DNA of 64,000 bases from Solirubrobacteraceae bacterium (GCA_036489875.1 DASXEZ010000160.1:17106-81105), one strand, 5' to 3'. Positions 2,664 to 54,457 are shown, counted from the stretch's first letter. Notes: generated by a model from the sequence alone, not told the origin. Program-made: numbers and translations.

Positions 2664-2863
2664 TGCGCTTGTATCGGCCTGCCATGCCGCCTGCGTGAAT
2701 CACCACGGTGCGCCCTTAGGGGAATCTTCAGATCGCTTCAGAGACTGCTCACATGCGCGTTCGAGACTCCTCGGGCACGAAGGCAGTGTGGGTCGCCCGG
2801 AAATCGGGGTATGCAGCCGACATCGCGCAGCCACAACCACCCGAGAAAGCCGAGCGTGCAGCG

Positions 2864-3391: not shown

Positions 3392-3497
3392 TCCCTGACA
3401 CTCTCGCGCCGGCGCCCAGTCCGACGCTCCTCGCCGTCGAAACCGCCCGCGCCGCGACCGCTCGAGGCGCGCACCTCGGCGGAGTAATCTCAGCTGC

Positions 3498-4163: not shown

Positions 4164-4232
4164 TTCGCGGGGGTTGGGTGTCGGCGCGGTTCACGGTGCC
4201 GCGTCGATTTCGAGACGACGTCAGGATGGGGA

Positions 4233-5210: not shown

Positions 5211-6019
5211 GTTTCGAACCCTTCGAGGCCGGTCGCGAGCACGGCTGGCTGTACTGGCAGATCTCAGACGCCCTCGTGCTCACCGGCCGGGCCCTGCGCC
5301 ACATCCCGCGCAGCCCGGAGATCCTGGTCTATTCGGCGATCCAGCCGGTGATGTTCGTGGTCCTCTTCCGCTACGTCTTCGGAGGCGCGATCAAGCTCCC
5401 GCCGGGCCTCTCCTACGTCAACTACCTGATGGCGGGGATCTTCATCAACACCGTCGCCTTCGGCTCCTTCTCGACTGGCGTCGGACTCGCGCTCGACCTC
5501 CAGAACGGCCTGATCGACCGCTTCCGCTCGCTGCCGATGTCGCGGGCCGCGGTGCTGATCGGTCGCACCGTCTCCGACCTGGTGCGCAACATCCTCACCG
5601 GCGCGGTGATGTTCGGCGTCGGCGTTCTCGTCGGCTTCAACCCGCAGGGCACGCCGCTCGAGATCCTCGCCGCGATCGCCATCCTGCTGCTCTACGGCCT
5701 CGCTTTCTCGTGGATCGGCGCGACGGTCGGGCTCGCGGTGCGAAACGTCGAGGCGGTCCAGTCGGCCGGCTTCATCTGGCTCTTCCCGCTGATCTTCGCC
5801 TCGAGCGCCTTCGTGCCGACCTCGGGCATGCCGTCGGGGTTGCGCGCGTTCGCCAACAACCAGCCGATCTCGCAGGTGGTCGACGCCGCCCGCGCCTGGT
5901 TCCTCGGCGTGCCCGTCGGCGACCACGCCTGGATCGCCGCGGTCTGGGGCGTCGGCATCATCGCCGTGTTCGTGCCGCTCTCGGTGCGCGTCTACCGCCA
6001 CGCCGCTTCGAAGTCCTGA
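5207..6019 (+). CDS. ABC-2 type transporter permease
   Basis: About six hydrophobic segments and an ABC-2 membrane-protein pattern. Translationally coupled (ATGA) to the ATPase. Confidence 0.85.
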   Translation: MSFEPFEAGREHGWLYWQISDALVLTGRALRHIPRSPEILVYSAIQPVMFVVLFRYVFGGAIKLPPGLSYVNYLMAGIFINTVAFGSFSTGVGLALDLQNGLIDRFRSLPMSRAAVLIGRTVSDLVRNILTGAVMFGVGVLVGFNPQGTPLEILAAIAILLLYGLAFSWIGATVGLAVRNVEAVQSAGFIWLFPLIFASSAFVPTSGMPSGLRAFANNQPISQVVDAARAWFLGVPVGDHAWIAAVWGVGIIAVFVPLSVRVYRHAASKS

Positions 6020-6043
6020 GCCACGCGCGGCAGATCTAAGGGC

Positions 6044-6166
6044 TCAGTGGTGGTGGCCGCCGGGGACGACCAGCGCCAGCACCACGCCCGCGATCACCGC
6101 GAGCACGATCAGCATCGCGACGCGGCGCAGGTAGGGGCGATATTCGGGTGGTAGCCGGTTGAGCAT
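6044..6166 (-). CDS. possible 40-aa single-helix membrane peptide ending in HHH
   Basis: ATG at 6166 gives MLNRLPPEYRPYLRRVAMLIVLAVIAGVVLALVVPGGHHH. Third positions are almost all G/C. It is the only coding-looking part of ORF 6044..6355. Confidence 0.3.
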   Translation of the reverse strand: MLNRLPPEYRPYLRRVAMLIVLAVIAGVVLALVVPGGHHH

Positions 6167-6206
6167 CGATCGGGGCGCCGCTTGCGGGATCATCCCAGGC
6201 CGGCCG

Positions 6207-7193
6207 ATGCACCACCTGCGCAGAAAACTCCTCGCCGCCGGCGCCGCGACCGCGGCTGCGGCGCTCGCCATCGCGGGGTGCGGCTCGAGCGCGCCGGCTC
6301 TCACACGCGCCACGCTGGTGCTCGATTTTGTGCCCAACGCCGTCCACGCCGGCATCTACCGAGCGATCGCTGCCGGTTACTACCGCGAGGCCGGCATCGA
6401 CCTGCGCGTGATCCCGCCCAGCTCGACCTCGACAACTCTGCAACTGATCGACGCCGGCAAGGCCCAGTTCGGCCTCGCTGACGGCATCGACGTCGCCGAG
6501 CAGATCGCGATGGGCCGCGACGAGAAGGCGATCATGGCGATCGTGCAGCGCCCGCTCGGCGCGCCGATCGCGCTCGCGAGCGAGCATCTGCACTCGGCCG
6601 CCGACCTTGTCGGGAAGACCGTCGGCATCACCGGCGTGCCCTCCGACCGCGCCGCGCTGGACACAGCGGTCGCCCACGCCGGCGGCAACCCGGCGAAGGT
6701 CAAGGTCGTGACGATCGGCTTCGACGGAGTGGCCGACCTCGAGGCCGGAAAGATCGCGGCCTTCACCGGCTACTGGCCCGACGACGGGGTCACCCTCAGC
6801 GTCAGCGGCTACCCCATCACCGTGTTCAAGCTCGACCAGAACGGCGGCCCCGCCTATCCGGGCCTCGTCGCCTTCACCACGCGCGCCCTGATCGCGCGGA
6901 GCCCGAAGCTCGTGCGCGGCTTCGTGCGCGCAACGGTCCGCGGTTACCAGGACACGCTCCGCGATCCCGCCAGGAGCCTTGACGATCTGCTGAAGCTCAA
7001 CCCCTCGATCGCGCGCAAGCTCACGCGCGCCTCGCTCGCCGCCTACCTGCCGGTCTTCGATGCCGGCGGCGTTCCCGACGGGACGCTCGTGGCTCCGCGG
7101 ATAGCGGCGCTGTCGGGGTGGCTCGTGCACAACCACCTGATCGCGCACCCGATCGCGGTCTCGCGCTTCGGGACCAACGCCTTCCTGCCGTGA
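6207..7193 (+). CDS. ABC transporter substrate-binding lipoprotein, NMT1/THI5-like (NitT/TauT family)
   Basis: Lipoprotein signal MHHLRRKLLAAGAATAAAALAIAGCGSS. The body has an NMT1-like pattern (LVLDFVPNAVHAGIY...). ATPase and permease follow with 4-nt overlaps. Confidence 0.85.
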   Translation: MHHLRRKLLAAGAATAAAALAIAGCGSSAPALTRATLVLDFVPNAVHAGIYRAIAAGYYREAGIDLRVIPPSSTSTTLQLIDAGKAQFGLADGIDVAEQIAMGRDEKAIMAIVQRPLGAPIALASEHLHSAADLVGKTVGITGVPSDRAALDTAVAHAGGNPAKVKVVTIGFDGVADLEAGKIAAFTGYWPDDGVTLSVSGYPITVFKLDQNGGPAYPGLVAFTTRALIARSPKLVRGFVRATVRGYQDTLRDPARSLDDLLKLNPSIARKLTRASLAAYLPVFDAGGVPDGTLVAPRIAALSGWLVHNHLIAHPIAVSRFGTNAFLP

Positions 7194-36728: not shown

Positions 36729-37022
36729 TCAGGAGAGGGGAGTGCCGTTCCTGCCGTTCTGCCAGGGGGTGCCCGTCGGGCCAGCGCCGTTAGCGGGCTG
36801 TCCGCCTCGCCCGCCCTTCCCGACGGTGCCGACCGCCGCACCGCCATCCCCGCCTGCGCCGTTGCCGCCGTTGCCGCCCGGGACGCGCTCGCCCGTTGCT
36901 GGCGCACGGGCTGCTCCGTTTCCGCCGGTCCCCGCGTTTCCGCCGGTGCGCCCGTCAGTGCGGTTCCCGGGCCCGCTCGGCGAGCCGCACTCCCTAGAAC
37001 CCTGCAGGCGTGACGAGAACTG
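36729..37022 (-). pseudogene. start-less Gly-rich reading frame (remnant of a GGX-repeat gene?)
   Basis: A 98-codon open frame bounded by TAG (37023-37025) and TGA (36729-36731) has no ATG/GTG/TTG. It reads ...GPGNRTDGRTGGNAGTGGNGAA...GGNGGNGAGGDGGAAVGTVGKGGRGGQPANGAGPTG..., the same composition as the 866-aa GGX protein 1 kb away. Confidence 0.3.
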
Positions 37023-37740
37023 CTAGGAACTCGGTGTAGAGGCTGGGATAGCCGTCACCAGGGCCGTTCTGGCTGTCGTCGCCCCCCGGCCCCAATCCTC
37101 TGCAGCACGCTCATGCCGCTGATCACAGTGCCGAAGGGGGTGTAGTCCGGAGCCAGCGTGGTGTTCTGCCAGGTGAAGAAGAACTGGCTGCCGTTGGTGT
37201 TCGGTCCGGCATTGGCCATGGCGAGCGTGCCGGCCGGGTAGGTGGCCCCGGTGAGGGTCTCGTCGTTGAATTCGTAGCCGGGACCGCCCGATCCGGTGCC
37301 GGTCGGGTCGCCGCACTGGAGCACGAAGATCCCTTGGGTGGTGAGCCGGTGGCAGTGGGTGAGATTGAAGTAGCCGCGGCTTGCCAGGAAGCGGAACGAA
37401 GTGGTGGTACACGGCGGCGCGGCGGTCAGCATCCGGACAGTGATGATGCCTCGCGTGGTGATGAAGGTGACGTTGAAAGGCTGCCCTCCTGTGTCGCATT
37501 GAACACGGGGATGCCCTTGAAGCTATCCGCGAGGACCGACGCTTGGAAGCCGCACGGGTTGGTGACTGTGGGCGTGGCGGCAGCCGTCCGCGCACGGAGG
37601 CCGGGAGCATTGAGGTAGGGACGGTGCACGGGGCTACTGAGGGCACCGGACGCGCTCGCCCCGGCGACTGTGACCGCAGCGGTCACAGTGGCAGTAGCGA
37701 GCAACCAACGAAAACGGCGTTCACCGAACATGGCGGGCAA
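36994..37740 (-). pseudogene. secreted cyclophilin-type peptidyl-prolyl isomerase, disrupted by two frameshifts (or two assembly errors)
   Basis: The signal-peptide ORF 37426..37740 has to jump frame near 37480-37495 to reach FNVTFITTRGIITVRMLTAAPPCTTTSFRFLASRGYFNLTHCHRL...QCGDPTGTGSGGPGY...LAMANAGPNTNGSQFFF...FGTV (ORF 37055..37432). A second shift at the C6 run (37082-37087) is needed to recover a cyclophilin-like tail ...GDGYPSLYTEF. Confidence 0.6.
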
Positions 37741-37968: not shown

Positions 37969-40569
37969 TCAGGAGGGTGCGCCGCTTCCGCCAGCCCCCC
38001 CGGGGGTACCCGCCGGCCCAGCGCCGGCACCGGCCGCCCCGCCCTGTCCCCCGGTCCCGCCTGCGCCGCCGGCGCCGCCGGCGCCGCCCGCGCCGCCGTC
38101 GCCGTTCGCGCCTGGGGATCCGGCCGCGCTGCCAGCTGTTCCGCCGTCGCCGGCGGCTCCGCCGTTGCCGCCGGCTCCGCCGTTCTGTCCGCCTGCGCCG
38201 CCCGCGCCACCGTCGCCACCCGCACCTGCGTTCCCGCTGATGCTGCCCCCATTCCCGCCGGCGCCTCCGCTGCCCCCGCTGCCACCGGTGCCGCCGGCGC
38301 CGTCAGTCCCGCCCGCGGCGCCGGTGCCGCCGGCGCCGCCGTCGCCACCGTCACCGAAGTTGCCGCCGTTACCACCGTGTCCGCCGCCGCCGCCGTCGGT
38401 CCCGGGTGCGGTTGCTCCGAATCCAGCCCCGCCGTCCCCACCGTTTCCGCCGCCGGGCGCGGGTTGACCGCCGGCGCCGGTGGACCCTCCGGTCCCGCCA
38501 ATGCCGCCGGTACCGGAGGGTCCACCAGCACCGGCGCTGCCGGGCGTCCCGCCGTTGCCGCCATTACCGCCGTTGCCGCCGTCGGGTTTGGCGGCGGTTC
38601 CGGCCAACCCGTTCCCGCCGTTTCCTCCGATACCGGCGGTGCCGCCGTTGCCGCCAGTACCGCCCACACCATTAGCCCCGGCTCCGCCTGAATTGCCGCC
38701 GCTGCCGCCCGTGCCGCCGCTGCCACCCGAGGCGCCGTTGCCCCCGTTGCCGCCGTTGGGGTCAGTGGCGGTTCCACCCAACCCGTCGCCGCCGTTCCCG
38801 CCCTCACCGGCGCCGCCGCCGGCGCCGCCGCCGCCGCCGGCACCGGCAGTCATACCGGCTCCGGCCGCGCCACCCTCACCGCCGCTGCCGCCGTTGCCGC
38901 CTGCGCCCCCGGGGGCACCGTCGCCACTGGCGCCGTTGTCGACTCCGGCCTCTCCCGTGCCGCCGTCGCCGCCGTTCGCCCCGGTCCCGCCTGCGCCACC
39001 ACGGCCGCCCGTTGCGCCGCGACCGCCAGTTCCGCCAGTGCCGCCGTCGCCGCCAGCGGCGCCGGCGGTCGCTGCTGGGTAGCCGGCGCCCCCGGTGCCG
39101 CCAGTCCCGCCGGTGGCGGCCTGACCAGCGACACCGGTCGTCCCAGCGCTCGCACCAGCCCCGCCAGCTGCTCCACCCATGCCGCCGCTGCCCGGCGTCC
39201 CAGGATCGCCGCCCGTGCCGCCCTCGCCGCCATTGGGGGTATCAGCTGTCCCTGCCCCACCGGTGCCGCCGCGCCCGCCCACACCGGCCGTACCGCCAGC
39301 GCCGCCGCTACCGCCGTTGCCAGCAGCGCCGCCGTTGACGCCGTGGATCGCCACGCCGCCGCTGCCGCCGGCGCCGCCGTGCCCGCCCATCTCGCCCGCG
39401 CCGCCGGTGCCGCCGGTGCCCGCTCCGCTCGTTCCGGCGACGCCGGTGGCGCCGTTGCCGCCGGCACCCCCGGCCCCCCCGTTGGCCCCCGGACCGCCGT
39501 TCCCACCGGTGCCACCAGCGCCGGCGGCGCCACCGAGCGTGGTTGATGAAGACCCGGCGCCGCCATTGCCGCCCACCCCGCCGGCGGAGGCGTTTCCAGT
39601 TTGTCCTGCGGTGCCGCCCGCTCCGGCGAGGCCACCCGCACCGCTGCTTCCGGGGTTCCCGCCGTTCCCGCCGTTGCCGCCCGTGACGTCGTCGCCGGTT
39701 CCTAGCGCACCGGCTGCTCCGTTCCCGCCGGCTCCGGCATTTCCGCCGGCACCGCCATTAGCGCCCGCGCCGCCGGCGCCGCCGGCGCCGCCGTTACCGC
39801 CGGCGCCGCCGGATTGGCTGGCTGTGCCTCCTGCACCACCAGCGCCGCCGTTACCGCCGCGGCCACCGTTCGCCCCGGTGCCGCCAGGGCCGCCAGGGCC
39901 GCCGGCGCCGCCGGCGCCACCGGAACCAGTGCCGGCCGCGCCGTTTCCGCCGGCCCCGCCGCTGCCGCCGGCAGCAGTGTTCACCACACCACGCAATCCG
40001 AGCACGAGGAGATGCGTTCCGGGATTCCCGCCTGCGCCGCCGCTCGATCCTGACTGTCCCGGTGTGCCGCCGGCAGCGCCGCTGCCGCCGGCGCCTCCGT
40101 TGCCGGCCTGGGATCCAAACTCAGCGTTCCCCCCGTTCCCGCCGGCGGTCCCGGCGTCGGCCGGGTTGTTGCTGCTCCACCCGTTCCCCCCGTTTCCGCC
40201 GCGGCCGGTGAGTAGTCCGCCGGTGCCGCCGTTGCCCCCGGGCACACCAGGAATGGTGCTTGACCAGCCGTTCCCGCCGTTGCCGGCGATCAGGCCACCG
40301 CTCTGACCATTCGGATGCTGAGCGGTGCCGTTGGCCCCGTTGCAAACGAGGCCACAGATGCTCGTCGTCGATGGCTGTGCCAACGCAACGAATCCCGTGG
40401 CGTTCGCGGGAGACGCACTCACCGCACAAGGCACCGCCCAAAGCAACACGCCGCCAAGGACGACGAATGCCACACGGAACGGTCGCCGACCACGCAGGCG
40501 ACCTCCACGTCGGGCCTTGCTCACCGAATCAAATCGAAAATCATCAGCGAACCTGCGATCTCGTGACAT
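37969..40569 (-). CDS. 866-aa secreted Gly-Gly-X repeat protein (PGRS-like composition, no PE domain)
   Basis: Uninterrupted 2.6-kb ORF. ATG 40569 is preceded by aggaaggctgagg. The signal peptide is RPFRVAFVVLGGVLLWAVPCAVSASPANA. The remainder is almost entirely GGN/GGA/GGT/GGS triplets (GGNGGNGGTGG, GGAGGNGGAGG, GLIAGNGGNGWSS). The opposite-strand Pro-rich ORFs are broken into pieces. Confidence 0.75.
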   Translation of the reverse strand: MSRDRRFADDFRFDSVSKARRGGRLRGRRPFRVAFVVLGGVLLWAVPCAVSASPANATGFVALAQPSTTSICGLVCNGANGTAQHPNGQSGGLIAGNGGNGWSSTIPGVPGGNGGTGGLLTGRGGNGGNGWSSNNPADAGTAGGNGGNAEFGSQAGNGGAGGSGAAGGTPGQSGSSGGAGGNPGTHLLVLGLRGVVNTAAGGSGGAGGNGAAGTGSGGAGGAGGPGGPGGTGANGGRGGNGGAGGAGGTASQSGGAGGNGGAGGAGGAGANGGAGGNAGAGGNGAAGALGTGDDVTGGNGGNGGNPGSSGAGGLAGAGGTAGQTGNASAGGVGGNGGAGSSSTTLGGAAGAGGTGGNGGPGANGGAGGAGGNGATGVAGTSGAGTGGTGGAGEMGGHGGAGGSGGVAIHGVNGGAAGNGGSGGAGGTAGVGGRGGTGGAGTADTPNGGEGGTGGDPGTPGSGGMGGAAGGAGASAGTTGVAGQAATGGTGGTGGAGYPAATAGAAGGDGGTGGTGGRGATGGRGGAGGTGANGGDGGTGEAGVDNGASGDGAPGGAGGNGGSGGEGGAAGAGMTAGAGGGGGAGGGAGEGGNGGDGLGGTATDPNGGNGGNGASGGSGGTGGSGGNSGGAGANGVGGTGGNGGTAGIGGNGGNGLAGTAAKPDGGNGGNGGNGGTPGSAGAGGPSGTGGIGGTGGSTGAGGQPAPGGGNGGDGGAGFGATAPGTDGGGGGHGGNGGNFGDGGDGGAGGTGAAGGTDGAGGTGGSGGSGGAGGNGGSISGNAGAGGDGGAGGAGGQNGGAGGNGGAAGDGGTAGSAAGSPGANGDGGAGGAGGAGGAGGTGGQGGAAGAGAGPAGTPGGAGGSGAPS
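37990..40330 (-). repeat. GGX-codon low-complexity array inside the 866-aa gene
   Basis: About 2.3 kb of ggc-ggc-nnn type periodicity (read as gcc-gcc on the + strand). This is degenerate triplet periodicity rather than long exact repeats. Confidence 0.8.
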
Positions 40570-40776
40570 CCTCAGCCTTCCTGCCTCAGACGCCGGCAAG
40601 CGCCCGGAACTCACGGAAGGGCAACCTAAACGAACGCCCGAGGCACTGCAACGCTCGCGGAAGTGCCGCGGTAGCGAGTGGGGCTCGGTCCTGCGCCCGA
40701 CATCGGGTCTGTTAACCGACGCGACGGGCGCTCCATCGCGATCCCGCGCCAGGTCGGCTCGAGTGCGTAAGCGCCC

Positions 40777-40819
40777 GCAGCAGGCCGGCCGCCCCTAGGT
40801 GGGTCGGCCGGCTGGCTGC
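40777..40819 (-). terminator. 15-bp GC-rich hairpin between the Asn/Gly-repeat gene and the GGX gene
   Basis: gcagcaggccggccg (40777-40791) pairs with cggccggctggctgc (40805-40819), with one mismatch and one G-U pair, around a 13-nt loop. It lies 94 nt downstream of the stop at 40913. No U-tract. Confidence 0.35.
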
Positions 40820-40912
40820 TTCGGTGCTTCTCGTGACGTGAGGCCTTATCGGAAGCCCCTAGTCATCTCCTCTCTTGCCAATTTCAGAACGATTCGACTG
40901 CGTTGATTCGGC

Positions 40913-42406
40913 TCAGCAGGGACTCGGGGCGCACTTGTCCTTCTGGCATGACGACGCGCACTGCTGACCGCAGCCCGGAGACTGGTGCCCGCAGCCCGGT
41001 GACTGCTGTCCGCATCCGTTGGTGTCGCACTGCTGCTGGCAGTCGCAGTTGCACGACGGCTCGCAGCTGTTGCCGCACTGCTGCTGGCAGTTGCACTGGC
41101 ATGTCGGCGGTGGCGGCGGTGGCGATGGCGGGTTGTTGCACGGGTAGTTGCCGCCGCTGTTGCTGTTGCCGCCGTTGCTGTTGCCGCCGCTAGCGGTGTT
41201 CGAGGCCGTGCCTCCGTTGCCGCCGTTGGCGTTGACCGTGCCGCCATTGGCAGACGACGGGCCGCTAGAGACCGCGGTGTTGCCACCGCGCGTGTTCTGC
41301 CCGACCGCGTCACCGTTGAGGAACACGAGGTTGCCGCTGTTGGACTGGCCGCCGTTGGCGGTGTTGCCGTTTCCTCCGCCGCCACCGTTGGCGTTGTTGT
41401 CGCCCTGCGTGATGCTTTGCGGTCCTTGGTTGTTGGTGGAGTCTGCGGCGTTGTTGGTGGCGGTGCCGCCGTTGCCGCCGTTGGCGTTGACGGTGCCGCC
41501 GTTGGCGTTTGAGGATCCGCTCGTCACGACGGTGTCGCCACCGCTCGTGCCGTGCTTGTGGTGGTGCTTGTGCTGCGAGTACGTCGACTCCGAGTCCTGG
41601 CAGCCGCAATTCTGCTGGTGACCCTTGTCGCCGGTCGATACCGCGTCACCGTTCAGGAAGACGGCGTTGCCGCTGTTGGACTGGCCGCCGTTGGCGGTGT
41701 TGCCGTTTCCTCCGCCGCCACCGTTGGCGTTGTTGTCGCCCTGCGTGGCGCCTTGCTGTCCTTGGTTGTTGTCCTCGTTCTTGCAGCCGCAACCGGGCGA
41801 GCCACTTCCACCGCTGTCGCCTGCGGTGTTCGAGGCGGTGCCGCCGTTGCCGCCGTTGGCGTTGACGGTGCCGCCGTTGGCGTTTGAGGATCCGCTCGAG
41901 ACGGCGGTGCTGCCGCCCTTCGCGTTCCCGCCCAGACTGACTGAGTCGCCGTTCAGCGCGACAATGTTGCCGCTGTTGGACTGGCCGCCGTTGGCGGTGT
42001 TGCCGTTTCCTCCGCCGCCACCGTTGGCGTTGTTGTCGCCCTGCGTGCCGCCATCGACTCCGGTCGGGCTGGTCGCGCCGTTCGTGGCCGTGCCGCCGTT
42101 GCCGCCGTTGTCATTGGTGGTCCCGCCATTGGCTGAGGAGGATCCGCTCGAGACGGTGGTGTTGCCACCGCTGGCGTTCCCGCCCAGGCCGACCGCGTCG
42201 CCGTTGAGGACGGCGATGTTGCCGCTGTTGGACTGACCGCCGTTGGCGGTGTTGCCGTTACCGCCGCCGCCGCCGTTGGCGGTGTTGGCGCCCTGCGTCA
42301 AGGCTCCCGCATTCCCAGACACGGGCGGCTGGGCCAGTGCTGAGGGTGCGCAAGCTCCCGCGATTGCGAGCACGCCTAGCGTGATCGCCGCGAAGTGTCG
42401 TCTCAT
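40913..42406 (-). CDS. 497-aa secreted Asn/Gly-rich four-repeat protein with His-rich insert and Cys-rich C-terminal tail
   Basis: ATG start and signal peptide MRRHFAAITLGVLAIAGACAPSALA/QPP. Four repeats follow: TQGDNNANGGGGGNGNTANGGQSNSGN.V.LNGD...VSSGSSNANGGTVNANGGNGGTA. Linkers contain GCGC, CGC and HKHHHKH. The last 77 aa contain 17 Cys (CQCNCQQQCGNSCEPSCNCDCQQQC...). Confidence 0.8.
   Translation of the reverse strand: MRRHFAAITLGVLAIAGACAPSALAQPPVSGNAGALTQGANTANGGGGGNGNTANGGQSNSGNIAVLNGDAVGLGGNASGGNTTVSSGSSSANGGTTNDNGGNGGTATNGATSPTGVDGGTQGDNNANGGGGGNGNTANGGQSNSGNIVALNGDSVSLGGNAKGGSTAVSSGSSNANGGTVNANGGNGGTASNTAGDSGGSGSPGCGCKNEDNNQGQQGATQGDNNANGGGGGNGNTANGGQSNSGNAVFLNGDAVSTGDKGHQQNCGCQDSESTYSQHKHHHKHGTSGGDTVVTSGSSNANGGTVNANGGNGGTATNNAADSTNNQGPQSITQGDNNANGGGGGNGNTANGGQSNSGNLVFLNGDAVGQNTRGGNTAVSSGPSSANGGTVNANGGNGGTASNTASGGNSNGGNSNSGGNYPCNNPPSPPPPPPTCQCNCQQQCGNSCEPSCNCDCQQQCDTNGCGQQSPGCGHQSPGCGQQCASSCQKDKCAPSPC
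41331..42298 (-). repeat. intragenic tandem repeats with 100%-identical DNA cores
   Basis: The 80-bp core ttgccgctgttggactggccgccgttggcggtgttgccgtttcctccgccgccaccgttggcgttgttgtcgccctgcgt occurs identically at 41331-41410, 41667-41746 and 41967-42046, with a diverged copy at 42219-42298. A second 65-bp block is identical at 41459-41523 and 41834-41898. Confidence 0.9.
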
Positions 42407-42495
42407 GACACCTGCTCACTTTCATCTCGTTCAAGAAGATCCGCCGGGCAGTAGGAGGCCCCCGACGGCCGGCCTGGTCAGACCCCGCGGACGGG

Positions 42496-43893
42496 TTAAC
42501 CAGGTCGCTCGAGCGGTGAATGAAAGGCGTGACGCGCGAAGCCAGCCGGAACGACGGGCAGGCCGGAAACCCGCGTCAGCGCCAGTGCGAACAAGAAGAG
42601 CGAAAGCAGAGCGGCGATCCCGGTGCCGTTGGCGCCGAGTGATCGCACGAGCCCGCCGAGACCGCCGGTGCCCAGCGACAGAACTGGCTGGGCCGTCGGG
42701 CGGACGTTGTCTGCGCCGTTGCTTGCGGGCGTAGCGCGCACCGCGGACGGCGGCAACGCGATCACGTGGAGGGGACCAATCAGGCTTGCCGTCGGTGTCT
42801 CAAGTCCTGCTGGTGCGGTTCCGAGCGGAATAGACACACCGACAGGCCTAGGGGCGTCGCCGTCGCGACGATCGGAACCCGCATGCGGCGGTGTCGGAAA
42901 CGAGACGCTCGGTGGGCTAGTCATCACTGCTGAAGAAGCCGGACCGGCGCCACGCGAGAGGTCAGCGGGTGGGGATGCGGGAGAGGCTTCGGGCGAGACG
43001 GCTCCGAGTGCGATACCGGGGGAGCTCGCCGAACCTTCGGGGGTGCGGGTAGCCATCGATCCGGTGGCGCTTCCGCTGATCGAGCCGATCGCGGACTTCG
43101 CGGTACCGGCATCGAGAGTGATCGACTTGGCCGCAGAGAGGTGCGTGACAAATCCGCTAACGGGTGGGATGGACACCGCGGCGTGGGCGGTGGTGGTCAC
43201 GGTCTGGGTCGGAGTCGAGGTGACGGAACCAATCGAGGAGTTGGCTGTGTCCCGAACCTTCGTCGTGATGGAAGTGGCGGCAGCGATCGCGCGGGTCGGC
43301 GCGACCTGTCCCACGCTCGGGGCGCCACCCTGCGGCACGAGCGACTGAACTCTCGTCGGTGTGACCACCCGAGGAACTGAAAGCTGCTTCACCGGCGAAA
43401 CGACCGGATGCGCGGATGCTGCGCTCGACGCGATGGCGGAGCCTGCCGCTACCGCCGCCGGCCGCAGCGTCTTCGGAGCGGTCGCGGCCGCGAGGGCGGG
43501 TCGGTCCGGGGGAGGACCAACTGCTGGCACTGGGGACGTCACGACCGCTGGAGCGGAACCTGTCGTCTGCGAACTCGCCACCGCGATGACCTGCGAGCTC
43601 GGAACGGCATCGGAAGTCGGGGCGGCGTCGGACGTCTGTGTCGTGCCAAGTGAAGAAGCGCCGCTGTCACCGGACGCGACGGTTGAACCCGTCGCCGGGA
43701 CCACGTCGGAGACAACCGTGGTCGGTTGGGGGGCAGCCACGATGCTCTGATTCGGGAGCGACCCGGCGGCCGCCGCTCCGGGGGCGCCGAAGGCGCAGAT
43801 GGCCAACAGCGTGACTGCACACACACCGCCGGCACAGAGAGACCGACGACTGATCGCGATGGAGCGCGCGAGGCGCTCGTCCGCGAGGTGCAT
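42496..43893 (-). CDS. ~465-aa Ser/Thr/Ala/Pro/Val-rich envelope protein with hydrophobic segments at both ends
   Basis: ORF 42496..43962 has TTG at 43962 and ATGs at 43944 and 43893. The N-terminal anchor/signal is SLCAGGVCAVTLLAICAFGAPGAAAAG. About 380 aa of mucin-like low complexity follow. A C-terminal hydrophobic stretch GIAALLSLFLFALALT is followed by a ~25-aa tail. Confidence 0.6.
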   Translation of the reverse strand: MHLADERLARSIAISRRSLCAGGVCAVTLLAICAFGAPGAAAAGSLPNQSIVAAPQPTTVVSDVVPATGSTVASGDSGASSLGTTQTSDAAPTSDAVPSSQVIAVASSQTTGSAPAVVTSPVPAVGPPPDRPALAAATAPKTLRPAAVAAGSAIASSAASAHPVVSPVKQLSVPRVVTPTRVQSLVPQGGAPSVGQVAPTRAIAAATSITTKVRDTANSSIGSVTSTPTQTVTTTAHAAVSIPPVSGFVTHLSAAKSITLDAGTAKSAIGSISGSATGSMATRTPEGSASSPGIALGAVSPEASPASPPADLSRGAGPASSAVMTSPPSVSFPTPPHAGSDRRDGDAPRPVGVSIPLGTAPAGLETPTASLIGPLHVIALPPSAVRATPASNGADNVRPTAQPVLSLGTGGLGGLVRSLGANGTGIAALLSLFLFALALTRVSGLPVVPAGFARHAFHSPLERPG

Positions 43894-44155
43894 TTCGGTC
43901 CCAGTCGTAACTGGCGGCCTGTAGGAGTCCCCCGACTCAACCATGCTTGGGCGTATACCCAAACCTCCGCAAAGCTAACAAAGGCTTTACAAACCTACCC
44001 AGGTTCCCCGCACAATCCATCCTTTTTGCGACCGCAGACCAAGCCGCTACCGCCGCCGACGCGGCTGATGCCGGCGCCTCGGTTGGGCTCTTGGGAGAGC
44101 GGGTACGGGAGCGCGATCGGTGGCTCGACGCGCGCGAGGAAAGGATGGGATTCCA

Positions 44156-47714: not shown

Positions 47715-49673
47715 TCATTCCGAGCCCGTAAAGCGAAGGCGCCCGAACTCGACGTTCGTGAGGCAGGCGCGCGGCGGGAGATGGAACGCAAGTTCCCGGA
47801 CCACTCCGGTGAACTGCAGAGGCAGTAGTTCGCCGCCGCGACCGCGGCCCCAGAAGTGCGTCACGGTGGCGAAGCCGAGACCGCGACGCTTCGCCAGGAG
47901 CTTCACGGAGATCCACGAGTTCGCCGGCATGCGAAAACGCACCTGAATCGCATAAGCGAGATCGGGTGGGAGGGAGACCATCCGCTGGGGGCGTGCGAGT
48001 GGTACCTGCAGCCAAGAGCGCGTCCCGGCGGCACACGCGAGAGATCGACTGCGTCGCGGTGCCGAAGCCGAATCTGAGCCGAGACGATCGCTGGCCCTCG
48101 CCCGCTCGATCGATCCGCGTCGGTCGGCTGCGAAGCGAACCGGAACCAGCCGGCCGCGGCGGGCGATCACGTAGATCCGCTTCGCGATCTTGTCGACACG
48201 CAGCCTGGGGTTGAACAGCGCGAAGAAATGGGCGTAGGTCGTGTAGGGCCACAGCGGCGTTGGCAGAACCTGCTTTGGCACCTTGAGATCAACGAGCACG
48301 GGTTCGGTGCCGGTGATCTTCCGCAGCCGCCTGTCGCTGGCGAGATAGGTGTGCACGTAGGCGCTGTTCTGCCGAGGCTGCCACGAGGCCCGCGACATCG
48401 CGCTCAGCGAGGTCAGCAGCAGCACGGCGTAGGCCGCCGCTGCCGCCACGCCGACAACAGCCAGCGCGCCGCTGGAAGGCCGGCGAAGGGCGAGCACGCG
48501 GAGACTGCGGCTCGCTGAGGAGCGGCTGCGTTGTCCGCCCCACCGCGGACTGATCGCAAGCGCCGCGAGGATCAAGAACATGAACTGCAACGACTGTTGG
48601 TAATAGATCACGTGGCCAATGCTGACCCCGAACTCCCTGATCCGTGTGAGCGCGACCGGCAGCATCGTGAGTAGGAACACCAGAGCGAACGCCAGCAGGC
48701 AGCGCCAGGCGCGCGGGCGCAGGTAGAGCGTTACCGCCACGGCCGCCACCACGACGAGCGTCGCTGCGACGATCGCGGTGGTGTGGCGCCCTGGGTGCGC
48801 CGGATACTTGATGCCGACCAGCGCGGGTATGAAGGTCTGGAAGAGCGCAATCTCGATGTAGTGCGCCACCGAGGAAAGCGAGGGTCGCGCCGCCGCCGCG
48901 TAGTAGTTGGCGTAGTAGTTGATGATCGCCGCGGCGTCGAGAACGACCAAGCCGACCCATACCCAACGCTCGCGCCACAGGGTGTGCAACCAGCCCCGTG
49001 GGCTGAGATCGCGCTCGAGCACGAGAAACGTGATCGCGGCGAGGTAGGCGGGGAAGAGGATCGCCGTCTCGTAGTCGAGCAGCGAGAGCGTGTAGGACAC
49101 CAAGCACGCAGCCAGCAGCGTGCCGGACCGGGACTCGCGCCAGCGCAGATAGCAACCCAGCGCGAGCAACATGAAGAGTGTCGAAGGGAGGATGTTCGCC
49201 GTCGCCGTCCACCAGTTGAGGAGGCGGATCACGAAGATCGACTGTCCGAACAGCAGCGTCATCACGAGCGCGATCCAGCCGTTCCCGAGGATCCAGCGCA
49301 CAACCATCGCGAAGGCGATCAGCGCGCCGGCGTACATCACCAGCTCGAAGGCGTGGGCAAGGACGAAGCTGCCCGGAGCGACCGCCACGAGGACCGTGTC
49401 AAGGACGCGGCTGATCGGAGAGAAGTGCTCGAAGAGGTTCTCGCGCAGGTAGGTGAGGCTCAGGCTTTGCGTGCGCGCTTGGCCCAAGAACAAGAAGTCA
49501 TCGACGAAGAAGAACGTGTAGCTCGTCAGCGCTGCCGCGCAGGCGACCTGCACCAGCACCGACGCTCCCCAGAGCCAGGCCGGCGGTGTCCGCCAGCGCT
49601 GCCGGCGATCGTGAGCGCCGGTCGCACCCGCCGGGCCCTTGGGATCGATCGGCAACTGCGCGGCCCGGCTCAC
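47715..49673 (-). CDS. 652-aa polytopic membrane protein, GT-C-fold glycosyltransferase-like, with ~200-aa C-terminal soluble domain
   Basis: The GTG start overlaps the upstream stop (GTGA). At least 10 hydrophobic segments. An acidic FFFVDDFLFLG motif follows the first TM helix directly, as in PMT/ArnT-type enzymes. The family call is inferred. Confidence 0.7.
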   Translation of the reverse strand: MSRAAQLPIDPKGPAGATGAHDRRQRWRTPPAWLWGASVLVQVACAAALTSYTFFFVDDFLFLGQARTQSLSLTYLRENLFEHFSPISRVLDTVLVAVAPGSFVLAHAFELVMYAGALIAFAMVVRWILGNGWIALVMTLLFGQSIFVIRLLNWWTATANILPSTLFMLLALGCYLRWRESRSGTLLAACLVSYTLSLLDYETAILFPAYLAAITFLVLERDLSPRGWLHTLWRERWVWVGLVVLDAAAIINYYANYYAAAARPSLSSVAHYIEIALFQTFIPALVGIKYPAHPGRHTTAIVAATLVVVAAVAVTLYLRPRAWRCLLAFALVFLLTMLPVALTRIREFGVSIGHVIYYQQSLQFMFLILAALAISPRWGGQRSRSSASRSLRVLALRRPSSGALAVVGVAAAAAYAVLLLTSLSAMSRASWQPRQNSAYVHTYLASDRRLRKITGTEPVLVDLKVPKQVLPTPLWPYTTYAHFFALFNPRLRVDKIAKRIYVIARRGRLVPVRFAADRRGSIERARASDRLGSDSASAPRRSRSLACAAGTRSWLQVPLARPQRMVSLPPDLAYAIQVRFRMPANSWISVKLLAKRRGLGFATVTHFWGRGRGGELLPLQFTGVVRELAFHLPPRACLTNVEFGRLRFTGSE

Positions 49674-51187
49674 CAGGGGGCCGGCGACTCGTCGACCAGC
49701 ACGGGTGCCGGGTTCATCTCGCAGTGATAGAGGAACTGATAGCCGAAGAGGGTGGGTCGCAGGGCCACGGCCATGCGATCCACCAGCGAGACGAGCATCT
49801 TGCCCTTGCCGCGATCCTTGGCGAGCACGTCGAGCGGCAGCCCGGTGACCTCCGAGCGCACCGTGCGAAAGCCGGCGCGGCCCAGCTCACGCTCGATGCT
49901 GCGCCGTGTGAAGAAGCGCACGTGCGTGCGGTCGAGCAAACCTCGCTGGTCGTAGTCGAAGATCCCGAGCAGCGCACGCGCACGCACGTACCAGTGCCCG
50001 AAGTTCGGGACGGACGCGATCAGCGCTCCGCGCGGCGCCAATATCCGGCGCGCATGCTCGAGCACCAGGGCGGGGTCGCGCACGTGTTCCAGCACGTCCC
50101 CCGCGAGGACGATGTCGAACGGTCCGTGCTCCGCAACCTGGGGCGGCAGGCCGTGATCGAGGTCCGCCTGGATGAAGTGATCAAGGCGCCCGCGGGTCTC
50201 GGGCAGTTCGAGGACATCCACCCCCACGACGCGGTGACCGAGGGCTCGGGCACGCTCAGCCAGCAGCCCTCCCGAACAGCCAAGGTCGAGCAGGTTCCCT
50301 GCCGGCAGTTGCTCCAACCAGCGCAGCATCACCGCGTGCGAGCTGCGCTGATCCGCCTTGAGCGTGTACTCCTTCCCGACCGCGCCCAGATCAGCGGAGG
50401 TGAAGCCGAGCTTGGCCAGCCGGTAGCGCACGACATCCGCTGAGACATCCCGGGCGTACTTGACGCCGTTGACGTAGCAGATCTCATCCCCGTAATAGGT
50501 CGGAACCGGCACCTCGACGATGCGCTTGCCGGCGTCGGTCAGTTGGATGATGATCTGGGTGTCGAAGTTGAAGCCGTCGGAGTTGCGCTCGAACGGAATC
50601 GACTTCAGCGCCTTCACGCTGTAGGCGCGGTAGCCGGAATGGAACTCGCTCAGGCTCGTGCCGAGCAGGCGGTTCTCAAATCTGGTCAGCAGTTTGTTGC
50701 CGACGTACTTGTAGAGGGGCATGCCCCCTTGGCGCGCCGCCCCAGGGACCAGCATTCGCGAGCCCATCACCGCGTCGCACTCGCCTCGTTCGAGCGGCGC
50801 CACCATCTCCGCCAGACATTCCGGCGCGTATTGACCGTCGCCGTGTAGGAGCACCACGATGTCCAGGCCATGCTCGATCGCGAGCCGGTAGCCGGCCTTC
50901 TGGTTGCCGCCGTAGCCGAGGTTGTCGTCATGACGGATCACCGTCAGCGGCAGATCTCTGACCAGCTGCTGGTATCCAAGACCTACGAGATAGGTGGAGT
51001 CCTGGCTCGCGTCGTCGCACACGAACACGCGCGTGATTCGCGGACGGAAGTCCTTGGGGACGCGATCGAGGACCTCGGCGAGCGTCGAAGCAGCGTTGTA
51101 GGCCACCACGATGATGCCGATCTTCGGTCCGGTCACCTGAGCCGGATCGCGCCCCACCAGCTCAAGCCGCGCAGCGTCGTCGCTCAT
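49670..51187 (-). CDS. bifunctional GT2 glycosyltransferase (DPM1/GtrB-like) / class I SAM methyltransferase
   Basis: N-terminal half reads IGIIVVAYNAASTL...VFVCDDASQDST...LLHGDGQYAPE...FHSGYRAYS. C-terminal half reads LLDLGCSGGLLAERARALGHRVVGVDV...FDIVLAGDVLEH. Confidence 0.9.
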   Translation of the reverse strand: MSDDAARLELVGRDPAQVTGPKIGIIVVAYNAASTLAEVLDRVPKDFRPRITRVFVCDDASQDSTYLVGLGYQQLVRDLPLTVIRHDDNLGYGGNQKAGYRLAIEHGLDIVVLLHGDGQYAPECLAEMVAPLERGECDAVMGSRMLVPGAARQGGMPLYKYVGNKLLTRFENRLLGTSLSEFHSGYRAYSVKALKSIPFERNSDGFNFDTQIIIQLTDAGKRIVEVPVPTYYGDEICYVNGVKYARDVSADVVRYRLAKLGFTSADLGAVGKEYTLKADQRSSHAVMLRWLEQLPAGNLLDLGCSGGLLAERARALGHRVVGVDVLELPETRGRLDHFIQADLDHGLPPQVAEHGPFDIVLAGDVLEHVRDPALVLEHARRILAPRGALIASVPNFGHWYVRARALLGIFDYDQRGLLDRTHVRFFTRRSIERELGRAGFRTVRSEVTGLPLDVLAKDRGKGKMLVSLVDRMAVALRPTLFGYQFLYHCEMNPAPVLVDESPAPW

Positions 51188-51796: not shown

Positions 51797-54457
51797 ATGC
51801 TGAGACGCGCAGTGGCAGTGGCTTTGGGCCTCGCGGTGATCGGCTGCGGCTTGCTGCTTGGGGCCAACATGGCGACCGCTACTGGAACAGGCGCGATTTC
51901 AGGCGTGCTCACGAATCCTTCTGGCGCGGCGATTGCAGACGCGACCGTCTTGGTGTACGAAAACGGCACGATCGCGGCTTCCGCCTCCACGTCGTCGAAC
52001 GGGAGCTACACCGCCGGGTCGCTCGTCGCGGGTTCCTATACGGTCAGCTTCAGACCGCCGCCCGTCCCAGCGAGTGGCCCGGATACGGGGAATTATCTGC
52101 CGCAGAACTACAGCGGCCGATCACCGAACGCCGGCGCGGACCCCGTCACAGTGCAGACCGGCGTCACGACTCCCGATGTTGACGGCGTGCTGCAGCCGGG
52201 CGGAGCGATCTCCGGAGTTGTCGAAGATAGCTCTGGCAACCCCGTGGTCGGTATCGACGTGGGGGCCTCGGACAGCGATGGCGTCTTCGCCGGGTCATCA
52301 GCGACCACCGCGGCGGACGGCAGCTATTCGATCGACAGGCTTCCGGCCGGCGAATACAGCGTCTCTTTTCTAACCGAGGGGCAGAGCTCGTATCAGCCCG
52401 ACTACACCGGCGGTAGTCCCACGCTCGCCGGCGCCTACGGTGTCGCCGTCACCGCCGGCTCAACGACCTCGGGTGTGGATGCCCATCTCGTCGTAGGGGG
52501 TGTGCTCACCGGCACCGTGACGGACACCTCTGCCGCGCCAGTAGAGGACGTTGGTGTAAGCGTTCTCGACAGCACCGGCAACGACGTCGCCAACGCCTCG
52601 ACAGGGACCGACGGCGTGTACTCGGTCACTGGCCTCGCCACCGGCTCCTACAGGGTTGAGTTCCTGCCGGAGCCGGAGTTCCCGTTCTCCCCTGTTCCCA
52701 ATTACCTCGCGTCCTACTTCGGCGGCTCGGCCACACTTTCCGGCGCGGCCACTGTGGAGGTCGGCGCGGGAAGCACCACTTCCGGCGTCGATGGGCGGCT
52801 CGCCGCCGGGGCGGTGATCGGTGGGACGGTCACGGACCCGGCTGATAAGCCCCTCGATGGCGTCGGTGTGAGTCTGTACGGCAGCGACGGGACAGAGGTC
52901 CAGCTTGCCACCACTGGTAGCGACGGCACCTATCAGATCGCGGGCTTGCCGAGCGGGAGCTACAAGATCGATTTCGACACCGAGGGCGGCTTTACGACGC
53001 TGAACGACGTCGGGGAGTTCTACGGCGGCAGCTCGCTTGCCAGCGCCACGGCTATCCATCTGACTTCGGGCGACCCGCCAGCGGTCATCAACGCGCAGCT
53101 CGCCGCCGGCGCGACGATCTCCGGGACGGTCACGGACTCGCTCGGCGATCCGCTCAGTGGCGTGCCAGTCGAGGCCTTTGACGTCGACGGCAATGTCGTG
53201 ACTGGCGCGACGACCGCCCACTTCAACGGCGACTACGAGATCGAGGGTCTACCCCAGGGCACCTACCGCATCGGCTTCGACCAGGGACTCGGGTGCTGCA
53301 GCCTGGCTGGCAACTACTCGCCGCAGTTCAGCGGCGACAAATCGACCCTCGCGGCCGCAGAGACGGTGACCGTGGGACCTGCGGGCAGCGCGAGCGGCGT
53401 TGATGCCGCTCTCACTCCCGGAGGGCGAATCTCCGGCCGGGTCACCGATGCCGGCGGCTCGACCCTTGGGGACATCAACGTCGAGGCCATCGACGCCGCA
53501 GGCAACGTCGTCGCCGCGACGCAGACCTTCCCGGATGGCACGTATTGGCTCTCCGGGCTCGGCAGCGGTAGCTACAGGATCCAGTACGCCGGTGCCTTCG
53601 CACTGGTCGGTCCGGTGGTCAATACGGAGTACTTCGGAGGTAGCGCCACCCTGGCCGGTGCGGCCGGAGTCTCCGTCGTCGCCGGAGCGACGACTGCGGG
53701 TGTCGATATGGAGCTCTCGCGCACGGCCGGCGGCATCGCAGGCGTCGTGACCAACGGGACCGACGGCTCCCTCGCGGGCGCCTCGGTGACCGTGTATGAG
53801 CTGTCTGGCAGCACCGCCGTGGCAACCTCGGTCACCGCCGCCGACGGCAGCTTCGCCCTCGCGGGTCTGGGCCCCGGCTTCTACCGAGTGGGATTCGCGC
53901 TCACGGGATACGCGTCCGCGTATTACTCCGGCGCTACCTCGCTGTCTGCGGCGCAACCCATCTATGTTGCGTCGGGGGCTAGCGCGACCGGCATCGATGC
54001 AGCGCTTCCAACGAGCGGCGCCAGCTCTCCGCCGGCCCCGCGAGCTCCGGCACCGCAGGCTTACGCACAACCCTCTCCGGGGCCGACGCCATCGCAGGGC
54101 TCAGCCGGCTCGCAGCCGCCGGGAGGCTCCGTTGTCGAGTTCGTCGTGCTCCCCTCAGTACGGAAGCTGAAGCTCTCGTCTCGCGGTTTCAAGATTCCCG
54201 TGCAATGTCTGGAGAAAGCACCGTGTACCGGGGAGGTCACGCTATCGGTCACCCATCGCAAAGCCCGGGTGAAGCTGGCTAGCGCTTCCGTGAAGATCGC
54301 TCCCGGCGGCGAGCACTACGCGATCGTAAAGCTCAACGCTTACGGAGCAAAGCTGTTCCGCTCGGCAAGGCACCGCCTACGCGTGACGGTCACGGTCTCG
54401 GTCCTCGGGCCAGGTACCGCGACGCAGACCGTCCGCGAAACCGTTCTGATCGTGTAG
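51797..54457 (+). CDS. 886-aa secreted protein with seven CarboxypepD_reg-like (Cna-B/SdrD-like) repeats
   Basis: Signal peptide MLRRAVAVALGLAVIGCGLLLGANMATA. There are seven copies of G.ISG.VTD..G.PL.GV.V...D..G..V..A.T..DG.Y.I.GL..GSY.V.F with YFGGS.TL..A linkers. A Pro-rich spacer and a ~110-aa C-terminal domain follow. Confidence 0.85.
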   Translation: MLRRAVAVALGLAVIGCGLLLGANMATATGTGAISGVLTNPSGAAIADATVLVYENGTIAASASTSSNGSYTAGSLVAGSYTVSFRPPPVPASGPDTGNYLPQNYSGRSPNAGADPVTVQTGVTTPDVDGVLQPGGAISGVVEDSSGNPVVGIDVGASDSDGVFAGSSATTAADGSYSIDRLPAGEYSVSFLTEGQSSYQPDYTGGSPTLAGAYGVAVTAGSTTSGVDAHLVVGGVLTGTVTDTSAAPVEDVGVSVLDSTGNDVANASTGTDGVYSVTGLATGSYRVEFLPEPEFPFSPVPNYLASYFGGSATLSGAATVEVGAGSTTSGVDGRLAAGAVIGGTVTDPADKPLDGVGVSLYGSDGTEVQLATTGSDGTYQIAGLPSGSYKIDFDTEGGFTTLNDVGEFYGGSSLASATAIHLTSGDPPAVINAQLAAGATISGTVTDSLGDPLSGVPVEAFDVDGNVVTGATTAHFNGDYEIEGLPQGTYRIGFDQGLGCCSLAGNYSPQFSGDKSTLAAAETVTVGPAGSASGVDAALTPGGRISGRVTDAGGSTLGDINVEAIDAAGNVVAATQTFPDGTYWLSGLGSGSYRIQYAGAFALVGPVVNTEYFGGSATLAGAAGVSVVAGATTAGVDMELSRTAGGIAGVVTNGTDGSLAGASVTVYELSGSTAVATSVTAADGSFALAGLGPGFYRVGFALTGYASAYYSGATSLSAAQPIYVASGASATGIDAALPTSGASSPPAPRAPAPQAYAQPSPGPTPSQGSAGSQPPGGSVVEFVVLPSVRKLKLSSRGFKIPVQCLEKAPCTGEVTLSVTHRKARVKLASASVKIAPGGEHYAIVKLNAYGAKLFRSARHRLRVTVTVSVLGPGTATQTVRETVLIV

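Follow-up and report, generated by a model that had tools for sequence, protein, structure and literature searches.

The stretch of DNA analysed here (the window) comprises 64,000 nucleotides (nt) of a Solirubrobacteraceae bacterium (GCA_036489875.1, DASXEZ010000160.1:17106-81105), and the part in question carries three consecutive minus-strand open reading frames (ORFs), P3, P2 and P1 in 5' to 3' order. The initial annotation had read them as one three-gene module of a cell-surface layer, sheath or extracellular matrix, with no member in any characterised family, and the question raised by the locus is whether the three genes belong together. The results suggest that they do so only in part. 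P3 and P2 are a rare, conserved, undescribed two-gene cassette of soil bacteria, so that the proposed linkage stands for this pair; P1 does not appear to be part of the unit.

The P3-P2 pair and its intergenic RNA

Conservation of the pair was followed in 17 other loci, five obtained via P2 similarity (L007-L011) and 12 via a DNA-motif pattern. A P3-like gene ending in (L/V)ERPG-stop lies 77-90 nt upstream of the P2-like gene in all five P2-derived loci; the distance is 85-86 nt in L007 and L008, both metagenome-assembled genomes (MAGs), and the three exhaustive-search relatives with retrievable context (L009-L011) show a low-complexity ORF ending in LERPG/VERPG-stop 77-90 nt on the 5' side. 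The pattern search of JGI metagenomes with the DNA motif of the RNA region described below yielded 12 more loci, from soil, and in each of the 12 a gene of P3 architecture precedes a signal-peptide gene at a distance of 76-160 nt. P2, P3 and their homologs have signal peptides with AxA-type sites. The genes flanking the pair vary by locus (catalase, recJ, transketolase, SARP regulator), and the conserved unit is therefore the P3-P2 pair. The L010 and L011 sequences (ENA ERZ25039483 and ERZ25039591) are long-read assemblies full of frameshifts, with the P2-like genes, dnaB and further genes split over frames, and the gene calls P0005 and P0006 are truncated artefacts of these frameshifts.

The downstream cargo is usually P2-like, and two other types occur, namely a 231-amino-acid (aa) Q/N/T-rich repeat protein with ...TQTAPVNIGGAQVTVTGDNTNNQ... 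units (L013, 1965-2201; L023, 812-1507) and a 136-aa secreted non-repeat protein (L012, 1323-1733; also L014). No similarity of either type to P2 was found. Since P3-type genes and the RNA precede unrelated cargo, P3 together with the RNA forms a constant module that can take different cargo.

The 89 nt between P3 and P2, which the initial annotation had measured correctly and treated as a spacer, hold a conserved structured RNA (Table 1). The aligned region from the P3 end to the P2 start contains the invariant DNA block TCGAGCGnCCTGGyTAr, which extends to third codon positions and to CCT, a rare codon for Pro, and conservation is thus at the nucleotide level. All loci adopt one predicted three-way-junction fold, in which the outer helix is typically CUCGAG/CUCGAG, lengthened by upstream P3 codons that pair with the purine-rich Shine-Dalgarno (SD) region of P2. 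Hairpin H1 has a mean z of -3.4 as compared to shuffles of its own non-coding 3' part, and at 10 of the 14 loci only 0-2 out of 300 shuffles are as stable as the native sequence. Covariation with the pairing partner is seen for the wobble base of a P3 Arg codon (G:C in four loci, C:G in six), and the positions right after the P3 stop show all four Watson-Crick pair types across loci.

A covariance model, R2, was built iteratively and replaced MAFFT with RNAalifold, which misaligned the H1 and outer strands and recovered H2 only. R2 finds exactly one element per cassette locus and none in control loci, its sole match in the window being 42409-42521 (78.8 bits). On the model alignment 88.2% of cells are paired, as compared to 74.3% for the shuffles; with partners shifted by 1-3 columns (slid controls) the share is 30-47%. 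Compensatory changes occur in 25 of 38 pairs (shuffles, 13.4 +/- 1.9; slid controls, 4-9), and the covariation score is 0.267 (shuffles, 0.097; slid controls, at most 0.059). The element is an undescribed one, with no overlapping Rfam match at E<=1 in the window and five other loci. The predicted unpaired value of the P2 SD in the window rises from 0.05 to 0.72 when the P3 end is masked, and that over 13 loci from 0.38 to 0.58 (Wilcoxon p=0.048). No sigma-70-like promoter was found in the promoter and terminator scans. The string GGGGGCC at the 5' side of the H2 loop (~42452-42461) is conserved in pattern-independent loci too and is unpaired in the model; as GGCC can pair with itself and is found again at the H1 base, the string may take part in a pseudoknot, in an alternative pairing or in dimerisation.

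P3 is predicted from hydropathy and composition to be a type-I membrane protein, with hydrophobic segments at both ends and a low-complexity, A/S/P/T/V-rich ectodomain of ~380 aa between them (A 17, S 13, P 11, G 10, V 10 and T 10% in P3 as a whole). The family shares this layout of a signal peptide, 300-450 aa of A/P/T/S/V(E)-rich and often internally repetitive sequence, a transmembrane (TM) helix and a tail, 17-27 residues long by a crude hydropathy estimate, that reads ...P-A-x-[LW]-R-P-x-P-[FY]-h-x-h-L-E-R-P-G. Conservation among homologs is limited to the signal peptide, the TM helix and the last 17 aa, with F/Y at -9 in 13/13 of them, Arg at -13 and Pro at three positions (-17, -12 and -10). 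The homologs in two MAGs are just 26-33% identical to the window P3 over the body and keep the C-terminus GGLxRSxGG...TM...CHAFLSPLERPG. Such an anatomy would suit a membrane-anchored, wall-spanning stalk. P3 has no Pfam or NCBIfam match, and a word-indexed search with its tail, a method of low sensitivity here where an exhaustive search is needed, returned no homolog. The possibility of a sortase substrate was rejected, there being no L[PA]xTG in P1, P2 or P3 and no neighbouring sortase gene. As stated in the initial annotation, neither a sortase nor a dedicated secretion gene was seen to adjoin P1-P3 among the neighbourhood genes examined.

An ORF scan of the window together with hydropathy bears out the three minus-strand ORFs in position, length, extreme composition and hydrophobic ends, with predicted N-terminal signal peptides in all three. 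P2 has a GC content at third codon positions (GC3) of 0.85 and an AAC:AAT ratio of 76:5, and P1 uses GGC, the host-preferred Gly codon, for 235 of 400 Gly codons. The codon-position GC of P3 in the window is nearly flat (0.66/0.67/0.72), with weak periodicity, and public gene callers split both P1 and P3, the latter being called as 89 aa by JGI and as 113 aa (labelled hypothetical protein) by NCBI, and in its full 465 aa by Logan. P3 homologs, however, keep an open frame over 340-530 codons with the same end motif and a GC3 of up to 0.92; the retention of the long frame and end motif identifies P3 as a real gene with a fast-evolving body. It might be argued that repetitive, GC-rich DNA has given rise to spurious ORFs, or that coding lies on the plus strand, as the flat profile of P3, a plus-strand ORF called within P3 by JGI and long antisense frames in P1 and P2 too would allow. 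The minus frames are nevertheless unbroken over 465-881 codons, whereas the antisense frames are interrupted; starts, signal peptides and the C-terminal motif are kept across loci, and the codon bias of P2 and the Pfam match of P1 favour coding. The chance of such an artefact is regarded as negligible.

The repeat unit of the P2 family is 85-160 aa long and has two conserved halves, V-x-Q-G-D-N-x-A-x-GG-x-GG-x-A-x-GG-x-GG-x-A-x-SGN-x4-NGNA and GG-x-T-x3-SG-x-A-x-GG-x-GG-x-A-x-A-x-GGD...V-A-x-V-x-Q, with variable loops and linkers that often hold CGC, His-rich or Lys/Asp-rich inserts. In P2 itself one CGC motif follows repeat 2 and another lies within repeat 3, which also contains a His-rich insert. 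The P/Q/Cys-rich tail, whose 17 Cys were rightly counted before, is restricted to the clade of the window, L007 and L008. Other members of the family are Asp-rich rather than Asn-rich, with GGDGGDADA units (L015, 159-1298; L019, 1958-3442; L021, 2981-4609), and their linkers carry HHHHHH, KDDYKxCGC or DxCGCK strings; outside the repeat core, no feature of the family persists as widely as CGC or CxC.

P2 is rare. A scan of 185,579 species-representative genomes revealed relatives at 60-64% identity in two Solirubrobacteraceae MAGs, and among 1.84 billion representative proteins, searched exhaustively with HMMER, there were only 6 relatives at E<=1e-3. A word-indexed search with full-length P2 returned no homolog, its list being saturated by 8000 low-complexity candidates, and a first metagenome scan with the P2 alignment confirmed no locus. 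No match to P2 was obtained in Pfam (hmmscan, E<=0.1), NCBIfam or PDB (profile search), and five other P2-family or cargo proteins matched no Pfam family at E<=1 (hmmscan). Membership in the curlin (PF07012), chaplin (PF03777) and RTX HemolysinCabind (PF00353) families was considered for P2, and none of these profiles matched. A lipoprotein was likewise rejected, since 'AGAC' makes a poor lipobox and its counterparts in L007 and L008 are no better suited.

P1 and the PGRS family

P1 scores 37.5 bits against the Pfam PGRS family PF21526, above its gathering cut-off of 27, and the claim that none of the three proteins belongs to a characterised family therefore holds for P2 and P3 and fails for P1. 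GGX-type repeats fill ~790 aa of P1 after the PGRS match, the Gly content being 45% overall and 49% past the N-terminus. Its first 210 residues as a query retrieve 102 homologs, nearly all with PF21526 and the majority being Mycobacterium PE_PGRS proteins. The best matches are without a PE domain and show an N-terminal signal or anchor, then CGLVCNGADGTxxHPxGQxGGLxxGNGGNGW; this junction, which reads SICGLVCNGANGTAQHPNGQSGGLIAGNGGNGW in P1, is common to P0007, P0008 (Smaragdicoccus niigatensis) and P0009. The Smaragdicoccus niigatensis relative is annotated as 'PGRS repeat-containing protein', a name used by NCBI for the PE-less subfamily, and P1 displays the signal/TM N-terminus, the junction and the PGRS repeats of this subfamily. 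P1 is thus by its sequence a PE-less PGRS relative, with PGRS repeats behind an ordinary export signal; its RRPF string could be a Tat motif.

As in mycobacterial PE_PGRS proteins (PF00934 with PF21526), P1 has GGX/GGAGG-type repeats that pass the threshold of Pfam PGRS, and the PGRS domains of mycobacteria begin much like its first PGRS units (GNGANGT...GGLIAGNGGNG). Unlike these proteins, P1 has no PE domain (no PF00934 match at E<=0.1 in the Pfam hmmscan) and no GRPLI linker (absent in a string search), has a Sec/Tat-like signal peptide instead of ESX-5 targeting, is nearly devoid of Phe/Trp loop residues and belongs to a Thermoleophilia host. The repeat body contains 3 F, 2 W and 1 Y in 791 aa, the GLxxG-type units are two only, both N-terminal, and no Phe/Trp-rich hydrophobic edge is evident by this composition proxy. 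A mycomembrane is not expected in a Thermoleophilia bacterium. The Phe/Trp-rich loops of mycobacterial PGRS have been proposed to insert into the mycomembrane, and by analogy with the structure discussed there P1 probably folds as a polyglycine-II sandwich (PMC9436101).

The spacer between P2 and P1 measures 343 nt, close to the earlier estimate of about 340 nt, and the hairpin reported in it was found again as an interrupted, GC-rich one without a U-tract (Table 1). This hairpin is likely to be a factor-independent terminator or an mRNA 3' stabiliser that separates P2 from P1. In the same spacer, CTCGAGCCGACCTGG at 40749-40763 (minus strand) closely repeats the P3-P2 RNA core CTCGAGCGACCTGG but has an additional base; it is unscored by the covariance model and may be a chance occurrence or a decayed copy. 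Co-occurrence of the trio did not emerge, as no Gly-rich ORF is present in the 17 other loci with a P3/P2-type pair, and the window alone has one. Conversely, two loci with close relatives of the P1 N-terminus have neither P2 nor P3 nearby and no synteny with the window. It is proposed that P1 is separately transcribed and adjoins the cassette in this genome by position only.

Proposed working of the cassette and competing explanations

The joint explanation preferred here, a translationally coupled P3-P2 surface-structure cassette beside an independent PE-less PGRS protein P1, is given an even chance of being correct. P3 would be exported by Sec and held in the membrane by its C-terminal helix, with the long A/P/T/S/V-rich stalk outward, and P2 would be secreted, presenting four Asn/Gly-rich, beta-strand-prone repeats with CGC motifs and a Cys tail that could cross-link it by disulfides. 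In the mRNA, the end codons of P3 would pair with the SD region of P2, and the P3 stop codon would lie inside a hairpin; according to an RNA-unfolding model, ribosomes on the last ~10 P3 codons would melt this junction and so license P2 translation. P3 would then serve as the membrane-anchored partner, or anchor, of a surface fibre or matrix built from P2. We infer export, membrane topology, translational coupling and anchoring by P3 from these features; export, for which the initial annotation suggested Sec, is predicted for all three proteins, and a structural-matrix function of the cassette is plausible from its sequence features.

Coupling by RNA unfolding is established elsewhere, including rpmI-rplT at +52 nt (PMC12548453). 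The P3-P2 junction resembles that of E. coli rpmI-rplT (+52 nt) and of the MS2 coat-lysis pair, in which the end of the upstream cistron pairs with the region of the downstream ribosome-binding site (RBS) (PMC12548453). It differs from these in a spacing of 76-160 nt, a conserved three-way junction and a stop codon in H1, and its coupling is a predicted one. At the protein level, the cassette is like curli CsgA/CsgB, Bacillus TasA/TapA and the short and long chaplins of Streptomyces, where a repeat protein stands beside a cell-anchored partner with no enzyme. P2 is like the functional-amyloid fibre proteins in being secreted, Asn/Gln/Gly-rich and built of beta-prone repeats, and its unit includes curlin-like strings (S-x-I/V-x-Q-G-x-N-x-A-x-GG ... 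N-x-A-x-V-x-Q-x-N); by this analogy it may form a beta-solenoid or fibres. The cassette has, however, no sequence or profile similarity to those families and no repeat common to P3 and P2, and the anchor of P3 is a TM helix and not a sortase product. The fibre-plus-anchor likeness is thus one of analogy and not of membership.

Several observations weigh against the proposal. AlphaFold2 gave a predicted local distance difference test (pLDDT) score of 32 for P2 from the single sequence, and of 41 for two repeats with a 13-row alignment, as a low-confidence all-beta model with short strands only. Known nucleator/fibre pairs share a repeat, which P3 and P2 do not, and the role of P3 may be general rather than P2-specific, given the two unrelated cargo types. 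An in silico ribosome footprint placed exactly at the P3 stop did not free the RBS (0.48 vs 0.51, not significant). The covariation alignment was fitted to model R2, and in a few rows the outer 3' strand is out of register; covariation in the outer helix is therefore less secure, while that in H1 and H2 is secure. The search pattern itself requires ERPG-stop and CGGGGGCC, and as 12 of the 17 comparison loci were retrieved in this way, the independent evidence for these two features comes from the five P2-derived loci only; the P3 architecture, F/Y at -9, Pro at -17/-12/-10 and the RNA helices outside the pattern were left free. The absence of a P1-like gene covers the sequence examined only, many of the comparison contigs being short.

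Instead of coupling translation, the intergenic hairpins might act on the transcript, as a partial terminator or attenuator or as a processing or stability element that sets the P3:P2 mRNA ratio. Two tandem GC-rich hairpins indeed follow straight after the P3 stop, a U-rich stretch follows H2 in the window (AUCUUCUU), L007, L008 and L010, and this reading is favoured by one screen in which stable structure just past the stop codon correlated negatively with coupling (PMC12548453). Most loci, however, have no U-tract after H2, the gap of ~35 nt from H2 to the RBS is too small for a separate P2 promoter, and the outer helices join the coding end of P3 to the P2 SD, which would be needless for a terminator; action on the transcript is considered unlikely, if still to be reckoned with. 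Another explanation makes P3 a regulatory, 'monitoring-substrate-like' leader, whose tail (...RPxP[F/Y]hxhLERPG-stop) stalls the ribosome at or near termination until export releases it, the stalled or passing ribosome remodelling the RNA junction and setting translation of the secreted cargo. Like SecM-secA, MifM-yidC2, VemP-secDF2, ApcA/ApdA/ApdP and the RQH family, P3 combines an export signal at the N-terminus with a weakly conserved body, a conserved Pro/Arg/Gly-containing C-terminal motif and, subject to the register of the alignment, an mRNA structure next to it that sequesters the downstream SD. The confinement of conservation to the signal peptide, TM helix and 17-aa tail agrees with this, as does the likeness of the Arg-Pro-Gly end to the RAPG/RAGP/RAPP arrest motifs (PMC10987492), and three unrelated cargo types behind P3 and the RNA would fit a regulator better than a specific structural partner. 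Yet P3 ends in RPG, with no R[AG]P[PG] or RAGP, and ERPG falls outside the defined RAPP-like motifs (PMC10987492). It is also an ORF of 340-530 aa with a C-terminal TM helix and not a short upstream ORF, and is followed by secreted cargo where the monitoring substrates precede translocon components encoded by sec genes (secA, secDF) or yidC. The conservation of LERPG is partly due to RNA pairing, CUCGAG and CCUGG being helix strands, and the footprint at the stop codon leaves the RBS closed in silico. A leader of this kind is distinctly unlikely, and marginally more so is its specific form, in which P3 monitors export by pausing at termination on Sec and, with the RNA, gates translation of aggregation-prone secreted cargo; the pause would perhaps localise cargo translation to the membrane.

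The nature of P2 can also be read otherwise, as that of a family of secreted metal-binding or metal-sequestering proteins rather than structural fibres. The recurrence of CGC/CxC in loops and linkers, the His-rich inserts (HKHHHKH in the window, HHHHHH in L015), the metallothionein-like Cys tail of the window clade and the resemblance of the Asp-rich GGDGGDA units of other clades to Ca-binding repeats are in keeping with this; but no metal-binding Pfam family matched, HemolysinCabind included, the window clade has Asn in place of Asp, and exported Cys in Actinomycetota are usually oxidised to disulfides. Metal binding is considered improbable. Assembly of P3, P2 and P1 into a single envelope or matrix module, as first envisaged, is very improbable. 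The three genes are adjacent and co-directional, all have export signals and non-globular composition, and no other function is evident for them; against this stand the lack of a P1-like gene in 17/17 other cassette loci, the unrelated neighbourhoods of the P1 relatives, the 343-nt spacer with a strong hairpin dividing P2 from P1, and the PGRS family of P1, which stands alone elsewhere.

The locus defines two undescribed protein families and one undescribed structured RNA, in a compact, mobile-looking two-gene cassette of Solirubrobacterales-type soil Actinomycetota, an abundant group that has seldom been cultured or studied. Should P2 build a surface fibre or matrix, as preferred here, the cassette would stand as a candidate for a cell-surface fibre system of Thermoleophilia, for which no described system was found in the literature. 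The RNA, by tying the end of one cistron to the next RBS over ~90 nt, offers a natural model for structure-mediated coupling or arrest-type regulation, and if P3 were a leader, the arrest-peptide principle of SecM/MifM/ApdA would reach beyond translocon homeostasis and govern secreted cargo in Thermoleophilia. The occurrence in Thermoleophilia of PGRS repeats with an ordinary signal peptide, as in P1, bears on the proposal that PGRS domains are made for a seat on the mycomembrane.

Coordinates and surroundings of the locus

Table 1. Features of the P3-P2-P1 region, numbered from the first letter of the window
Feature	Position	Strand	Details or basis
P3	42496-43893	-	465 aa from ATG 43893; 488 aa from alternative TTG 43962
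P3 signal peptide	~43765-43893	-	hydropathy
P3 C-terminal TM helix	42574-42621	-	hydropathy
P3 tail	42499-42573	-	25 aa, ending HAFHSPLERPG; sequence
Conserved structured RNA	42402-42524	-	~115 nt; last ~9 P3 codons and stop through P2 start codon
RNA outer helix, 5' strand	42510-42524	-	P3 coding end
RNA hairpin H1	42470-42507	-	holds P3 stop codon
RNA hairpin H2	42441-42468	-	form CCGyCGGG...CCCGGCGG
RNA outer helix, 3' strand	42402-42420	-	P2 SD region and ATG
P2	40913-42406	-	497 aa; G 24, N 16, S 11%
P2 signal peptide	42332-42406	-	sequence
P2 repeats 1-4	42053-42304, 41753-42052, 41417-41752, 41147-41416	-	~84-112 aa each
P2 P/Q/Cys-rich tail	40916-41146	-	77 aa, exactly 17 Cys; sequence
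Interrupted GC-rich hairpin	40777-40819	-	~16 bp; ~95 nt 3' of P2 stop codon, in P2-P1 spacer
P1	37969-40569	-	866 aa; 881 aa from alternative GTG at 40614
P1 Arg-rich N-region and hydrophobic signal	40402-40515	-	sequence/hydropathy
P1 CGLVCNGANGT junction motif	40324-40356	-	motif comparison with PE-less relatives
P1 Pfam PGRS match	40174-40344	-	PF21526, residues 91-147 of the 881-aa form
Frameshifted secreted cyclophilin (peptidyl-prolyl isomerase)	37055-37740	-	PF00160 on 37055-37432; signal-peptide part in other frame, 37426-37740
Start-less Gly-rich frame	36732-37022	-	blastp vs P1 segments: 39-45% identity, E down to 3e-20

The window has a GC content of ~68%, and its host is a Solirubrobacteraceae (Thermoleophilia) MAG; the JGI metagenome contig L001 is 99.995% identical to it. 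Six window proteins have exact database matches, five of them under NCBI accessions within HEY1778201-HEY1778217. For the catalase of the window the sole record is from JGI; in clusters at 90% it is represented by the MAG protein HEY1778210.

The broken cyclophilin and the start-less Gly-rich frame noticed downstream of P1 are both real. The frameshift of the cyclophilin is present likewise in the independent assembly L001, and the NCBI call is a 135-aa fragment only, as compared to 170-298 aa in its cluster relatives; the gene is a neighbour outside the conserved P3-P2 cassette. The Gly-rich frame is, judged from its similarity to P1, the remnant of a PGRS-like gene and paralogous to P1, and its position beyond the cyclophilin points to a second PGRS gene that was once rearranged or has decayed.

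On the other side, 4-10 kb from the P1-P3 region, lie genes for a 652-aa protein without Pfam match (47715-49673, minus strand), a fused GT2 glycosyltransferase-methyltransferase (49670-51187, minus strand) and an 886-aa protein with CarboxypepD_reg/SdrD_B repeats (51797-54457, plus strand), which may constitute a separate surface-protein or glycosylation locus. Among the comparison loci, L008 carries on the 5' side of its cassette (2368-6516) a 1382-aa ORF for a class-II-type ribonucleotide reductase, in which an apparent intein-like insertion of ~400 aa lies between conserved blocks of the enzyme.

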